NCBI GenBank assembly: GCA_002420105.1
Contig: DIHJ01000038.1
Location: 76,504 to 140,503 of the forward strand
DNA: 64,000 nt
Direction: 5' to 3'
Source of the DNA: Nitrospira sp. UBA5699
Lineage (GTDB): Bacteria > Nitrospirota > Nitrospiria > Nitrospirales > Nitrospiraceae
Every line of letters starts with the position of its first letter. Positions within the stretch are counted from its first letter, which is position 1. The notes below the pieces were generated by a model. The model was not told the origin of the DNA. It saw only the letters and a program-made list of their open reading frames with translations, and made no database searches. A program made the position numbers and the translations under genes. Of the stretch, positions 10,073 to 37,508 are shown one piece after another.

Positions 10073-10105
10073 GGGGAAGGTCGCCTTCTACGGGCGACTT
10101 TCCCC
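10073..10105 (-). terminator. Strong hairpin 18 nt downstream of the tRNA-Asn 3' end
   Basis: GGGGAAGGTCGCC (10073-10085) pairs with GGCGACTTTCCCC (10093-10105), 13 bp with one G-U pair. The flanking T tract is only weak. Confidence 0.35.
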
Positions 10106-10164
10106 TTATGCTGTGGCTATGATTGGCTCCCCGGGCAGGACTCGAACCTGCGACCAGCCGGTTA

Positions 10165-10719
10165 CAAGTGCCCCAGTCTTTCGACCGGGCTTGGACTATC
10201 TCTTCACCCGCCTGAATTTCAGGAGAGGGTGTCGGGCGCTGGTGAGGCGTTATCGGATTGGCTCCTCAGCCTCTAGTCTCTGCACGTTCCTGCCTACACC
10301 ATCTCTCGATGGGCCGTTCGGCAGGCTTCGCTCAGGATTACCGTTCCGCATATGCGGAGACGGCTTCCCTGAATTCACCCGATGTTTCAACCACAGTTTC
10401 CTGTGGAAGCTGCAGATGGGAGTGAACCTCTCGGTGACAGTTCGCGCACAAGAGCATACATTTGTCTAGTTCTTCGCGGATCTTCGACCAGCTTCGCGTG
10501 TAGCCTTTGCTGGATATCCCAAAGTCCTTGCGAGAAGAAGTCAGATGATGAAACTCCAGTGCTTCCATACAGCGGTCATAGCCGCATCTTTCACAACGCG
10601 CGCCCTTGTAAGCCAACGCCTTTTGTCTGATGACTTTTCGGCGTTTGCGGACGGCCTCGATCAGATAGCTGCGACGATCCGCGTATGAACGTCGCTCTGC
10701 CACCGGTTCCCTCACTCCT
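10165..10719 (-). mobile_element. Group I intron (555 nt) in the tRNA-Asn anticodon loop, between nt 35 and 36
   Basis: The 5' exon ends in U and the intron ends in G (10165). The IGS CCGGTGGCAG (10706-10697) can pair with 5' exon CUGU (P1, with a G-U pair) and 3' exon ACCGG (P10). The R box is GTGCAGAGACTAGAGGC (10285-10269) and the S box is AAGAGATAGTCC (10204-10193), with GACTA/TAGTC forming P7. P4 is CCTGCC/GGCAGG, P5 is CCATC-GAGA-GATGG (10312-10299) and P9 is CCCGGTC-GAAA-GACTGGG (10189-10172). Confidence 0.75.
10338..10715 (-). CDS. Intron-encoded HNH endonuclease (candidate homing endonuclease)
   Basis: CERCGY...EFHHL (HH codons at 10550-10545)...LLCANCHREVH forms an HNH/zinc-finger motif. 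The track ORF (10338-10790) runs into exon 1. The in-frame GTG starts inside the intron are at 10715 and 10703. Confidence 0.7.
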   Translation of the reverse strand: MREPVAERRSYADRRSYLIEAVRKRRKVIRQKALAYKGARCERCGYDRCMEALEFHHLTSSRKDFGISSKGYTRSWSKIREELDKCMLLCANCHREVHSHLQLPQETVVETSGEFREAVSAYAER

Positions 10720-10778
10720 ACAGCCGGCTGCTCTACCAACTGAGCTACCGGGGAACGGTATTCAGCGAAAGCTGCTGC

Positions 10779-10787
10779 ATTGTAGCA
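10779..10787 (-). promoter_or_regulatory. Candidate extended -10 promoter for tRNA-Asn
   Basis: The minus strand reads TGCTACAAT (TGn plus TACAAT) about 25 nt upstream of tRNA position 1. There is no good -35. Confidence 0.3.
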
Positions 10788-11199: not shown

Positions 11200-11478
11200 T
11201 TAGCCCTGATAGGCTTGGCCGAGGGCTGCGGATTCGCCTTTTTTCGACATGAGCTGTCCGGTCGCGCTGACGGCCTGCATGACGATCGCCTCGTGCTTGG
11301 CGGCGTTGCAGACTACGACGCAGAGTTCGCAACCCTTGCAGCGGTCGATGTTGACTTCCGCCACCATCTTGGCCGAATTCAGGTCGAGGCAGTTGGCCTC
11401 CGGGCAATACATGATGCAGAGCCGGCAGCCCTTCTTGGCGGTGCACTTCTCGTCGATGACTTGCGCTACGTTATACAT
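11200..11478 (-). CDS. 2-oxoacid:ferredoxin oxidoreductase, 2x[4Fe-4S] ferredoxin-like subunit
   Basis: Two Cys clusters are present: CTAKKGCRLCIMYCP and CKGCELCVVVC. Confidence 0.8.
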   Translation of the reverse strand: MYNVAQVIDEKCTAKKGCRLCIMYCPEANCLDLNSAKMVAEVNIDRCKGCELCVVVCNAAKHEAIVMQAVSATGQLMSKKGESAALGQAYQG

Positions 11479-11499
11479 GCGACGTGGTTCCTTCTCTCG

Positions 11500-12207
11500 T
11501 TACGCAGCCACGGCCGGATTGCCGACTCGCAACTCAACGTGGTTCTTCTCGGCCCATTCGCTGGCGATCTCATAGGCCCGCTTGACGGTCGCCAGGTTTT
11601 TCTGGAGCAGCATTTCCTTCTTGGCGAACTTCTTCTTGATGGCTTCGTCCAGCGAGGCCGTGCCGCCCGATGCGACGAACTTCTTGCCGAACCGTTCCTG
11701 CAGCGCGCCGTCGAGGGCTTCCATCGACACGCACTTGGTGATGCCCGCCACCGATCCGATCATCGTCATGTTGGTGGACAACTCGGTGCCGGCGATCTCG
11801 ATCGCGAGCTCGGTCCCGGCAATGTAGAATGTGGCGACATTCAGATCCTTGAGGCGTTGAATGTCTTCTTCCGACAGCAGCGGCTGCGCGGAGTTGATGA
11901 TGACCACGCCGCCTTCCTTAATGCCGGAATAGAACGGCATCGTATAGCTCTTCCCCATCGTGATGACCTGAGGATGGAAGACCTCGATCACATCCGGGAA
12001 GACCAGTTCGCCGCGGTCATAGATCCGCTCGATGCCGATCCGGCAGTAGCTCTCGGCCGGCGCCATGCGCTTTTCCGCGCCGAAGAACGGATTGGAAATG
12101 GAAAATTTGCCGTCCCGGTTGGCGGCCATGGCCATGACGTGGGCGGCCGTGACGGCGCCCTGTCCGCCCAAGCCCGACATCCGGATATTCAGTCTTTTCT
12201 TGATCAT
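11500..12207 (-). CDS. 2-oxoacid:ferredoxin oxidoreductase, gamma subunit
   Basis: MSGLGGQGAVTAAHVMA is typical of OFOR gamma domains. The gene overlaps the beta subunit gene by 4 nt. Confidence 0.85.
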   Translation of the reverse strand: MIKKRLNIRMSGLGGQGAVTAAHVMAMAANRDGKFSISNPFFGAEKRMAPAESYCRIGIERIYDRGELVFPDVIEVFHPQVITMGKSYTMPFYSGIKEGGVVIINSAQPLLSEEDIQRLKDLNVATFYIAGTELAIEIAGTELSTNMTMIGSVAGITKCVSMEALDGALQERFGKKFVASGGTASLDEAIKKKFAKKEMLLQKNLATVKRAYEIASEWAEKNHVELRVGNPAVAA

Positions 12208-12225
12208 GAGTGGCCTCCGGTTCCT

Positions 12226-13128
12226 TTAGGCCTGTCCTGCCAACTGCTTGGCGGCGGCTTTCCGTTCCTTGTCCTTGGCGGCCAGTTCCGCCAGGAGCTG
12301 CTTGGCCGGCTCGCTGATGTATTCCTTGTACGCGAACCGTTCGGTCGGCTTCTCCGAATCGCGCATTTCCTGGAGGCCTTCCATGCTGTTCTTGCCGATC
12401 TCGAGAATACAGGGCGTGTAGAGCTGGAGATAGGTCGGCCCGATTTCGCGGGCGATGTGCACCGCATTCCGGATGACCTTTTCCACGAGCGACGGCTTGC
12501 TGACCGTGCAGTTGACGACGTAATGGCAGCCGGACTCGCGGGCGATTTCAGGCAACCGGACCTTGTCGAAGAGTTTTCCGACCGGGGCCATCTTGGCGAC
12601 GAAGCCCTTCTGCATGAGGCCGCTCTCCTGTCCCCCCGTGTTGGCATAGAGCTCGTTGTCGAAGCAGATGGTCGTGAACTTCTCCTGGCGGAACCAGGCT
12701 TGAAGCGTCATGTCGAGGCCGATGTCGACGGTGGCGCCGTCGCCCGCCAGGACGACCACGTCCTTGACGCGACCCGGGAACCGGACGCTGAGGGCGCGCT
12801 TCAGACCCGACGCGATGGCGTTCTGGTTGCCGAAGAGCGAGTGAATGTTGTGGACCGCCACCATGGGGAACACCAGGCTGGTGCAGCCGGTGGAGCCGAC
12901 CATGACGGTGTCTTCCGGGTTCGGCAGGGAGGCCAGGATGTACCGGAACGCCATGGACTCCGGGCAGCCGGCGCAGAGCGAATGCTGCTCGATGAGTTCC
13001 TTGGTGTTCCCGATGTCCTTCCAGCCGCGGTCTTCCTTGCCGTAGGTCGCGTTCTTCACGAGATCCTGATAGTCCGACGGCATGATGTCGTAGAGGGCTT
13101 CGGAGATTTGAATGCGTTCTTTGCTCAT
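12226..13128 (-). CDS. 2-oxoacid:ferredoxin oxidoreductase, beta (TPP-binding) subunit
   Basis: The protein has CAGCPE Cys ligands, the GDGATVDIG TPP motif and YANTGGQ. Confidence 0.85.
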   Translation of the reverse strand: MSKERIQISEALYDIMPSDYQDLVKNATYGKEDRGWKDIGNTKELIEQHSLCAGCPESMAFRYILASLPNPEDTVMVGSTGCTSLVFPMVAVHNIHSLFGNQNAIASGLKRALSVRFPGRVKDVVVLAGDGATVDIGLDMTLQAWFRQEKFTTICFDNELYANTGGQESGLMQKGFVAKMAPVGKLFDKVRLPEIARESGCHYVVNCTVSKPSLVEKVIRNAVHIAREIGPTYLQLYTPCILEIGKNSMEGLQEMRDSEKPTERFAYKEYISEPAKQLLAELAAKDKERKAAAKQLAGQA

Positions 13129-33651: not shown

Positions 33652-33728
33652 GGGCCCATAGCTCAGGTGGTTAGAGCGGCTGACTCATAATCAGCTGGTC
33701 CTAGGTTCGAGTCCTAGTGGGCCCACCA
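33652..33728 (+). tRNA. tRNA with anticodon CAU (elongator Met or lysidine-modified Ile2, not distinguishable by eye)
   Basis: The acceptor stem is GGGCCCA/TGGGCCC, the anticodon arm is GCTGA-CTCATAA-TCAGC, the T arm is CTAGG-TTCGAGT-CCTAG, and CCA is encoded. Confidence 0.9.
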
Positions 33729-36851: not shown

Positions 36852-37276
36852 GGAGAAGACCGGGTGACCGTTCGTTGCGGCAACGTGGCGAGAGGAAAGT
36901 CCGGACTTCATGGGCAGGGCGCTGGGTAACACCCAGGCGGAGCAATCCGACACCCGCACCACAGAGAACAGACCGCCGATGGCCAAGGCGATGGGACCCC
37001 AATCTAGTCGCTGCGGATCAGGTAAGGGTGAAACGGTGGGGTAAGAGCCCACCGCGGGGATGGTGACATCACCGGCAGGGTAAGCGTCGCTCGATGCAAG
37101 GCCAAATAGGAAGACACCTGTCGTTTCCCGTTTCGGGGAGCGGCGACCGGCTGGCCCGGCTGAGGTCTTCGGGTAGGTCGCTTGAGGCTCGGGGCAACCC
37201 GGGTCCCAGAGAAATGATCACCCCCGTCCGGGAGCATATCCCAGGCGGGACAGAATCCGGCTTATAGGTCTTCTCC
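36852..37276 (+). ncRNA. rnpB: RNase P RNA, bacterial type A
   Basis: The P1 stem is GGAGAAGACC/GGTCTTCTCC. The conserved blocks GAGGAAAGTCCGGAC, ACAGAGAACAGACCGCCGATGGCC, ATCAGGTAAGGGTGAAA, GCAAGGCCAAATAGG and ACAGAATCCGGCTTAT are all present. Confidence 0.95.
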
Positions 37277-37508
37277 ACCGCGCTTTTTTGATCGCACGCC
37301 GTAAGTCGCCTTCCGTGATCTTCCCCGAGCACTCCTCGATTCCGTCGATCAGGACGACCGGGACTCTGGCTCCATAGCGGGCCAGCAGTTTCGGATCGTC
37401 GTCGGCGCATTGTTCGGTGATTTCAATCGGGAACTCCGCCCGGAGAAGGAACGCCATGCGGGAAATCACGTCGCAGAGGTGACAGTCTGCCCGGGAGACA
37501 ACGGTCAT
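37218..37508 (-). CDS. Glutaredoxin-like / thioredoxin-fold small protein (DUF836-like)
   Basis: The ATG at 37508 is followed by the CHLC redox motif and VPVVLIDG. The C-terminal 19 codons are antisense to the rnpB 3' end. Confidence 0.55.
   Translation of the reverse strand: MTVVSRADCHLCDVISRMAFLLRAEFPIEITEQCADDDPKLLARYGARVPVVLIDGIEECSGKITEGDLRRAIKKARWRRPISRILSRLGYAPGRG

Follow-up and report, generated by a model that had tools for sequence, protein, structure and literature searches.

An HNH-encoding group I intron inside the anticodon of a Nitrospira tRNA-Asn gene and its relatives in other bacterial phyla

In reviews published in 2014, cyanobacteria and the alpha- and beta-proteobacteria are the only bacteria listed as having group I introns in tRNA genes, and one of these reviews located all phage introns then known in protein-coding genes. 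In the tRNAscan-SE 2.0 paper no cases other than fMet and Ile2 are mentioned, and a paper on closed genomes of the candidate phyla radiation (CPR) reports that some tRNAs were hard to detect and carried group I introns, leaving unstated which tRNAs these were. As summarized in PMC3984707, the cyanobacterial tRNA-fMet intron encodes an endonuclease (Bonocora & Shub 2001), and in collaborative (trans) homing a free-standing endonuclease gene lies beside a gene whose intron has no open reading frame (ORF) (Zeng et al. 2009; Bonocora & Shub 2009). According to a 2014 review, the anticodon stem assists the self-splicing of pre-tRNA from Anabaena (Zaug et al. 1993). Phage T4 SegB is a free-standing GIY-YIG homing endonuclease encoded in a tRNA gene cluster (PMC2330249). 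Here we analyze a 64,000-nt stretch of contig DIHJ01000038.1 from Nitrospira sp. UBA5699 (the window, to which coordinates refer unless another locus is named), in which a tRNA-Asn(GUU) gene, read on the minus strand, is split by a 555-nt group I intron that carries a gene for a predicted HNH endonuclease. An earlier annotation made from the letters of this stretch (the sequence-only reading) had proposed the split gene and knew of no group I intron in tRNA-Asn. We likewise found no description of one in the openly readable literature, subscription-only papers being outside the scope of the search, and the intron family is apparently undescribed.

The 5′ exon (10754–10720, 35 nt, tRNA nucleotides 1–35) terminates in GCCGGCUGU, its last nucleotide being U35. 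The 3′ exon (10164–10124, 41 nt, nucleotides 36–76) begins with UAACCGGC and finishes with GGGGAGCCA, and includes G73 and an encoded CCA (10126–10124). Analysis of the joined halves with ARAGORN and by direct reading gave a 76-nt tRNA-Asn(GTT) with a canonical cloverleaf, a U1-A72 pair, discriminator G73 and the anticodon loop CUGUUAA. With introns allowed, ARAGORN reports the genomic locus as tRNA-Asn i(36,555); neither ARAGORN with default settings nor the Rfam tRNA model called the split gene in the 64-kb window. The intron (10719–10165) lies between anticodon nucleotides U35 and U36, starts with AGGAG and ends with CACUUG, so that the terminal guanosine (omega-G) is at 10165. A search with RF00028, which had been proposed as a check, matched the full model at 10434–10172 on the minus strand (75.4 bits, E 2.4e-17; gathering score 50), and 15 relatives of the intron scored 54–104 bits. 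Because the joined exons constitute tRNA-Asn and RF00028 matches the intervening sequence, the split tRNA is real. The sequence-only reading was exact in its exon and intron coordinates and in its description of the tRNA, and the U that ends the 5′ exon and the G that ends the intron recur at the same junction in 77 related loci. It had also remarked that the region is visibly AT-rich; the G+C content is indeed lower than in the flanks, but the difference is modest (0.52–0.57 versus 0.60–0.66).

The anatomy of the ribozyme was examined in an alignment of 73 distinct core sequences. From 5′ to 3′ on the minus strand, the core opens with the P2 hairpin CCACAG-GAAA-CUGUGG (10391–10406), which has a GNRA loop, compensatory changes in six of six pairs and 99.8% of its cells paired. 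There follows a block supported by covariation (10332–10382) with the 5′ strand of P3 (10382–10375), P4 (10372–10367 with 10337–10332) and the P5 hairpin (10364–10340), and then P6, P6a and P6b (10284–10331), with compensatory changes in one of three P6 pairs and in all six P6a pairs. The 5′ strand of P7, G-A(bulge)-GACUA in the R box (10274–10280), is invariant in the 73 cores and has its partner at 10198–10193. Between P7 and the 3′ strand of P3 stands an extra P7.1-like helix of type A, GAGGC...GCCUC (10241–10273), which covaries among the 38 type-A relatives. The P3 3′ strand itself (10232–10239) covaries, and it is followed by the P8 hairpin (10205–10231; compensatory changes in four of five pairs), the invariant S box made up of J8/7 (AAGAGA) and the P7 3′ strand (UAGUCC; 10193–10204), and the P9 hairpin CCCGGUC-GAAA-GACUGGG (10172–10189; six of seven pairs). 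The GACUA/UAGUC pairing of P7 and the GAAA-capped 3′ hairpin had been seen in the sequence-only reading; the GAGA-loop hairpin that it took for P5 is P6b.

RNAalifold predicted 40 pairs in the 73 cores, 31 of them with compensatory changes. A hand-drawn structure comprising P2, P3, P4, P5, P6, P6a, P7, P8 and P9 (49 pairs) was scored on the same alignment; 95.1% of cells were paired and double changes were found in 32 of the 49 pairs. The covariation score was 0.481 compared with 0.149 for shuffled alignments, none of 500 shuffles equaled it, and sliding the partners by 1–3 columns reduced it to ≤0.086. The guide sequence, P7 (GACUA/UAGUC with the bulged A), J8/7 and the terminal G do not vary at all in the 73 cores; P7 is uninformative for covariation because it is invariant. 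These data point to a group I core with the canonical P3–P9 order, including the P3/P7 pseudoknot, that has been kept in evolution. GNRA loops cap P2 and P9 in the window and in most family members, and motifs resembling the CCUAAG...UAUGG receptor occur in P5 and P8 of many members, the window having a variant only. The region between P7 and P3′ holds one covarying stem in the window and 37 others, two hairpins in 26 and none in five. In subgroup IA introns, P7.1/P7.2 are located between P7 and P3′. Subgroup IC3 is defined by having no helix there, and the window and 63 other members carry one or two. Because of these extra helices we do not file the intron as IC3, and we assign it to no subgroup.

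The putative internal guide sequence, GCAGCU (10408–10413), would form the 3′ strand of P1; its GCAGC is invariant in the 73 cores. Its predicted partner is GGCUGU (10725–10720), the last six nucleotides of the 5′ exon. GCAGC(U/C) can pair with exon nucleotides G30–U35 and would bring a U35·G wobble to the splice site. In two introns of the family that lack an ORF (loci L064 and L100), the guide lies 7–8 nt past the splice site. The HNH gene is placed in the predicted P1 loop because the conserved guide is at 10413–10408 in the window and close to the splice site in the relatives without an ORF. The body of the ORF occupies this loop, and the final ∼25 codons share their sequence with the guide, P2, the 5′ strand of both P3 and P4, and P5.

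The HNH ORF, which the sequence-only reading had missed, encodes 121 amino acids from a GUG start at 10703 to a UAA stop at 10340–10338 (10338–10703, minus strand). It corresponds to intron nucleotides 17–382, about two-thirds of the intron; an alternative GUG is at 10715. A Shine-Dalgarno-like GAGGGA (10707–10712) lies 3 nt upstream of the GUG at 10703–10701 and may serve as its ribosome-binding site, and relatives have ATG or GTG at the aligned start, 15–22 nt past the splice site. The protein matches PHROG 2255, ‘HNH endonuclease’ (E 5.6e-29), and Pfam HNH (PF01844; 22 bits, cut-off 21.4); a search of NCBIfam gave nothing useful. Among 5.8 billion proteins searched there were 768 homologues, the best 120 listed having 67–89% identity; the named sources include Nitrospira, Acidobacteriota, Aerophobetes, Elusimicrobiota and others. 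Residues C37/C40, H52/H53, C86/N88/C89 and H94, that is, two CxxC pairs, an HH, an N and a final H, are invariant or nearly so. The profile match and the conserved residues argue for membership of the HNH (beta-beta-alpha-Me) endonucleases. An AlphaFold model (mean predicted local distance difference test score, pLDDT, 74) shows residues 1–96 as a long basic helix and a beta-beta-alpha unit (strands 49–53 and 82–86, helix 87–94), with residues 97–121, the tail encoded by the ribozyme, predicted to be disordered (pLDDT <50). The top fold matches in the PDB are nearly all HNH nucleases, including Cap5, Gme HNH nickase, the Cas9 HNH domain and T4 endonuclease VII, all at E >0.05. Synonymous sites are saturated in most pairs of homologues. 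In the 53 unsaturated pairs, for the part upstream of the ribozyme overlap, the ratio of nonsynonymous to synonymous substitution (dN/dS) had a median of 0.11 and a maximum of 0.33, which points to an intact endonuclease gene under selection.

The ORF has no stop codon of its own; the frame continues through the guide and P2–P5 to the UAA in J5/4. The resulting C-terminal peptide, LQLPxETVVExSGEFREA, is near-invariant because it is encoded by conserved RNA structure. Free-standing relatives do not have this tail and end directly after the HNH motif. Protein sets also hold many entries of 148–150 amino acids labeled ‘HNH endonuclease / McrA’ (for example P0005, P0009, P0010 and P0019), in which the N-terminus, SPVAQLVEQPAV, results from translation of the tRNA 5′ half; the equivalent ORF in the window is 10790–10338. 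In other entries the ORF crosses the whole ribozyme and the 3′ splice site (...WGTCNH). Since the intron went unrecognized, we consider both kinds of entry to be gene-calling artefacts.

In order to compare alleles, metagenome contigs were scanned for an exact match to the uninterrupted tRNA-Asn, using the same 45 nt across the junction, and at least 120 loci were found. At least 92 of the 120 intron-less loci listed carry, no more than 400 nt away and in the same orientation, a homologue of the gene that immediately precedes the split tRNA gene in the window; this answers the earlier proposal to check relatives for an intron-less allele at this locus. These loci then carry the delta and gamma subunits of a 2-oxoacid/pyruvate:ferredoxin oxidoreductase (POR), up to 99% and 98% identical to those of the window, and their exon sequence is identical. 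This synteny is shared, intron included, by sixteen Nitrospira-type genomes besides the window. Loci with and without the intron resemble the window to an equal degree; for example, POR gamma identity is 97.5–97.8% for L009 and L007, which have the intron, and 97.5–97.9% for L224 and L247, which do not. Intron-plus and intron-minus alleles thus occupy the orthologous site. Because at least 92 syntenic loci share the exons without the intron, the intron is polymorphic and presumably mobile. The locus has the appearance of an expressed gene, transcription being presumed, with the presence/absence polymorphism of the classic homing intron.

The distribution of the family was examined with the HNH alignment as query against one genome per species (185,579 species). 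At least 565 stretches encode HNH relatives, and the best 80 of these, all from metagenome-assembled genomes (MAGs), were examined. Under the names as deposited, they come from Nitrospira/Nitrospiraceae, Acetothermia, Deltaproteobacteria, Clostridia, Aerophobetes, Edwardsbacteria, Acidobacteriota, Elusimicrobiota, Omnitrophota, Binatia, Patescibacteria (four candidate phyla), Planctomycetes and Gammaproteobacteria, about 12 phyla; some names are doubtful, several ‘Gammaproteobacteria’ MAGs having tRNA sequences of CPR type. A group I core was present at the ORF in all 80 loci. In 77, ARAGORN found a tRNA split by 251–670 nt, and the junction was always CUGU before the intron, G at its end and UAA after it, that is, tRNA-Asn interrupted after U35; labels of ‘Thr’ and ‘Tyr’ given by ARAGORN are alternative parses of the identical junction. 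The remaining three loci are cut by contig ends, and RF00028 still matches them. Four introns are 60–120 nt longer than usual, those of L029 (655 nt), L047 (619 nt), L053 (632 nt) and L074 (670 nt). The extra sequence of L047 lies in P7.2 and P8, and a simple search did not locate the guide-sequence region in L029. In an Omnitrophota MAG (L059), a c-di-GMP-I riboswitch (2701–2783 of that locus, plus strand, 41.9 bits) is found ∼650 nt downstream of the intron-containing tRNA-Asn.

A scan of viral contigs yielded at least 573 HNH relatives, of which the best 80, with 40–65% identity, were examined. Seventy-eight of these 80 lie within tRNA arrays, and 47 of 80 have an intact tRNA-Asn(GTT) as the closest tRNA on their strand, at a distance of no more than 400 nt; tRNA-Asn makes up 78 of the 743 tRNAs in the 80 loci. 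The endonuclease lineage follows tRNA-Asn genes, which lends indirect support to the predicted cleavage of the intron-less allele at or near the insertion site. The phage genes match the HNH core alone and not the ribozyme-encoded tail. In L100, a phage-like contig with a CCA-adding-enzyme gene, the HNH gene abuts a tRNA-Asn that contains a ∼206-nt family intron without an ORF, detected by the family sequence profile (E 2.6e-11). L064, from Ca. Saccharicenans, has a tRNA-Asn with a 251-nt intron without an ORF and a free-standing 97-amino-acid HNH gene 150 nt downstream. A rough neighbor-joining tree of HNH domains does not split cleanly into intron-encoded and free-standing proteins, and the L064 protein nests among the intron-encoded ones. 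Because there is no clean split, the tree does not indicate which arrangement is ancestral.

Phage arrays also contain other interrupted tRNA genes, reported by ARAGORN with introns allowed: tRNA-Ile(UAU) in L159 (342–625, 210-nt interruption), tRNA-Lys(UUU) in L152 (2387–2705, 244 nt) and tRNA-Ser in L087 (2002–2771, 681 nt). A tRNA-Leu(UAA) in L142 (1624–2395, minus strand) is interrupted by 687 nt and matches the family profile in part (E 7.7e-6). These four interruptions may be further phage tRNA introns. Rfam searches by gathering score and by E-value did not call the short introns in L100, L159 and L152. L085 was considered as a phage-borne copy of the intron and rejected; flanked by dnaX and recR and, at its opposite end, by a serine recombinase, it is a host/prophage junction and not a phage tRNA. 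The large serine recombinase gene (3491–5224 of L085, minus strand) directly follows the intron-containing tRNA-Asn, which suggests that a prophage integrated at or beside this tRNA gene.

The surroundings of the gene in the window were also inspected. An extended −10 promoter-like motif, TGcTACAAT (10779–10787, minus strand), was spotted by eye ∼25 nt upstream of the tRNA start, and related loci have TGnTAnA(A/T)T at the corresponding position in 82 of 97 cases without the intron and in 15 of 24 with it. A scan for consensus promoters and terminators called nothing on the minus strand, so the assignment of this putative promoter is based on its conservation. A GC-rich hairpin 19 nt past the CCA end (10073–10105, minus strand; RNAfold −22 kcal/mol), which has no T run and was missed by the terminator scan, is a possible terminator or processing signal. 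Upstream, the tRNA gene is adjoined by genes for a multi-subunit POR (11200–13128, minus strand, and beyond), with delta, gamma and beta subunits; L001 adds an alpha subunit and a CO_dh-like subunit. These genes, a G+C content of about 62% and the best matches are indicative of a Nitrospira host. The POR beta subunit of contig DALYLE010000047 of assembly GCA_031976475.1 is identical to that of the window. Elsewhere in the window is a bacterial class A RNase P RNA (36852–37280, plus strand; 270.8 bits, E 2.8e-87) with two large insertions relative to the model.

We propose the following course of events. The gene would be transcribed from its own conserved extended −10 promoter, and the core would fold into P2–P9 with the P7.1-like helix; its anatomy predicts splicing. 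P1 would be formed by G30–U35 and the guide GCAGCU ∼300 nt downstream, with the U·G pair at the splice site. Exogenous guanosine would attack after U35, and the freed 3′-OH of U35 would attack after the terminal G at 10165, the exons probably being aligned by the anticodon stem rather than by P10. The product would be the mature 76-nt tRNA-Asn. Either the precursor or the excised intron would serve as messenger for the HNH protein, translated by means of its own ribosome-binding site. By analogy with known systems, the enzyme would act on tRNA-Asn genes that lack the intron, nicking or cutting them close to the insertion site, and repair from an intron-carrying copy would then spread the intron, i.e. 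homing. Because ribosomes would have to traverse the guide and P2–P5, translation and ribozyme folding are expected to be mutually exclusive on one transcript.

Given the split tRNA, the covarying core, the HNH gene under selection, the common insertion site across phyla and the presence/absence polymorphism, we consider it very probable that the locus is a working tRNA-Asn(GUU) gene carrying a mobile group I intron between U35 and U36, with splicing and cleavage as predicted activities. Several observations weigh against this interpretation. The Pfam HNH score barely exceeds its cut-off, and support from the PDB is weak (sequence E 0.002–0.03; no Foldseek match at E ≤0.001). P1 gives no covariation signal; covariation is impossible there because its exon strand, the invariant anticodon loop, never varies. 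No convincing P10 was found, as the triplets that precede GCAGC on its 5′ side (UCU, GUU, ACG and others) are not complementary to the exon UAA. About 75 nt of the ORF fall within the catalytic core, and transcripts under translation should therefore be spliced less readily. In L035, a Nitrospiraceae MAG, the HNH frame (region ∼1501–1809 of that locus) is interrupted by a TAG immediately ahead of the CANCH motif; inside an otherwise intact intron the endonuclease gene seems to be in decay, so some copies may be decaying. Finally, the presence of a second tRNA-Asn was judged within the window, where the sole other tRNA, and the only uninterrupted one, is a tRNA-Met(CAT) (33652–33728, plus strand).

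Some of these observations would also fit an intron that splices but is immobile, its HNH protein being inactive or having another role and its inheritance being vertical only. The stop codon in L035 and the possible limit that the overlap with the core sets on HNH expression agree with this, as does the small size of the HNH core (∼97 amino acids) for a sequence-specific enzyme. We nevertheless find an immobile element unlikely, since dN/dS is ∼0.11 and synonymous sites are saturated, the residues for catalysis and zinc binding hardly vary, the intron is present or absent among equally close Nitrospira loci (POR gamma ∼97–98% in both), the same element is found in ∼12 phyla, and free-standing relatives stay beside tRNA-Asn genes. 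Far less probable still is a disrupted, non-functional tRNA pseudogene in a cell served by another tRNA-Asn. Such a reading would account for the failure of standard tRNA finders, and the tRNA search covered the 64-kb window. Against it, a perfect cloverleaf results from the exons both at this locus and in 77 diverged relatives, compensatory changes maintain the ribozyme core, the promoter motif is retained, and the authors of the closed CPR genomes found tRNAs for all amino acids, some with group I introns, the tRNAs being unnamed.

The sequence-only reading differed from ours in its anatomy: it took CCGGUGGCAG (10706–10697) as the guide sequence forming both P1 and P10, in an intron that would be non-coding. 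The complementarity exists in the window, where GCAG can pair with CUGU and CCGGU with ACCGG. However, CCGGUGGCAG (10697–10706, minus strand) consists of the last two bases of the spacer and the first three HNH codons (GUG GCA GAG, the third partial). It is not conserved; in relatives ‘GCAG’ appears as GCU G, GCC G or GCG G, and CCGG is missing outside close relatives. This variation at third codon positions and the loss of CCGG indicate that CCGGUGGCAG is free of RNA constraint. Furthermore, introns without an ORF do not contain it and have GCAGCU 7–8 nt past the splice site, and the ORF itself is under purifying selection. That anatomy is hardly credible, and on comparative sequence grounds we regard it as already refuted.

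Returning to the mobile intron, its splicing and homing mechanism would be conventional; the host gene, the distribution and the natural series of arrangements appear to be new. The HNH gene occurs in three arrangements: free-standing beside an intact tRNA-Asn in phage tRNA arrays; free-standing beside a tRNA-Asn with an intron that lacks an ORF (L064, L100); and inside the P1 loop, continuous in frame with the ribozyme, as in the window. We can picture a widespread mobile intron family at site 35/36, in ∼12 phyla including CPR and in hundreds of species, in which a homing endonuclease of phage tRNA genes seeded a bacterial intron; we hold this broader scenario to be about as probable as its opposite. 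If it is true, the three arrangements are stages of the proposed ‘endonuclease invasion’ route, and one endonuclease lineage offers a natural series for how mobile introns originate.

The family would also have consequences for its hosts. Small genomes that have only one copy of each tRNA would rely on RNA self-splicing for all their decoding of AAU and AAC codons. Genomes may appear to lack tRNA-Asn because standard tRNA finders miss the split gene. The overlap of ORF and ribozyme sets translation in competition with splicing in an essential tRNA, which raises a regulatory question. To the host tRNAs of bacterial introns named in the literature (Leu, fMet, Ile and Arg) the family adds a fifth, together with an insertion position inside the anticodon, an HNH endonuclease and many phyla of uncultured bacteria. 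In our view, the family is notable for how broadly it is distributed, for its new insertion site, for the ribozyme-fused HNH gene and for the coexistence of free-standing and embedded forms.

Among described introns, that of Azoarcus tRNA-Ile resembles the tRNA-Asn family in its compact core, in its GNRA-capped P2 and P9, and in the receptor motifs that many members have in P5 and P8. The P6-J6/7-P7 and J8/7-P7 strings are very similar as well, and identity to the family is 63–72%, a comparison that serves as a lead only. The window intron differs in its host tRNA and in lying inside the anticodon (35/36), whereas the Azoarcus insertion is 3′ of the anticodon. It is 555 nt rather than 205 nt long and has an HNH gene in the P1 loop. 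The tRNA-Asn family further has one or more extra helices between P7 and P3′, and its hosts are Nitrospirota, Acidobacteriota, Elusimicrobiota, Omnitrophota, CPR and others, not proteobacteria.

The cyanobacterial tRNA-fMet intron, as far as the review that cites it describes it, is likewise a group I intron of the anticodon loop, with an endonuclease that targets its own tRNA gene in the anticodon region and a sporadic distribution suggestive of lateral transfer. It differs in host tRNA, insertion position and phyla, and the tRNA-Asn family is far wider spread. The endonuclease of the tRNA-fMet intron is not known to be of the HNH family. The Anabaena-type tRNA intron also interrupts the anticodon itself and self-splices; in contrast, it has no ORF, is ancient and mostly vertically inherited in plastids, and resides in another host tRNA. 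I-HmuI, I-BasI and I-TwoI are, like the predicted enzyme of the window, HNH enzymes encoded inside group I introns, and by analogy the window enzyme would probably be a nickase. They are larger, nicking enzymes, located in introns of phage protein-coding genes, and no sequence relationship of the window HNH protein to these three was detectable.

The phage homologues found here resemble T4 SegB in being free-standing endonuclease genes in tRNA arrays; they differ in being HNH proteins and in their association with tRNA-Asn (47 of 80). Collaborative homing reportedly concerns psbA in cyanophages and nrdA in an Aeromonas phage, both protein-coding genes. L064 and L100 show its arrangement for tRNA-Asn. 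The target here is a tRNA gene, and all stages are found within one protein family. The arrangements of intronless and collaborative homing are thus as set out in PMC3984707, with the window as the proposed composite end state.

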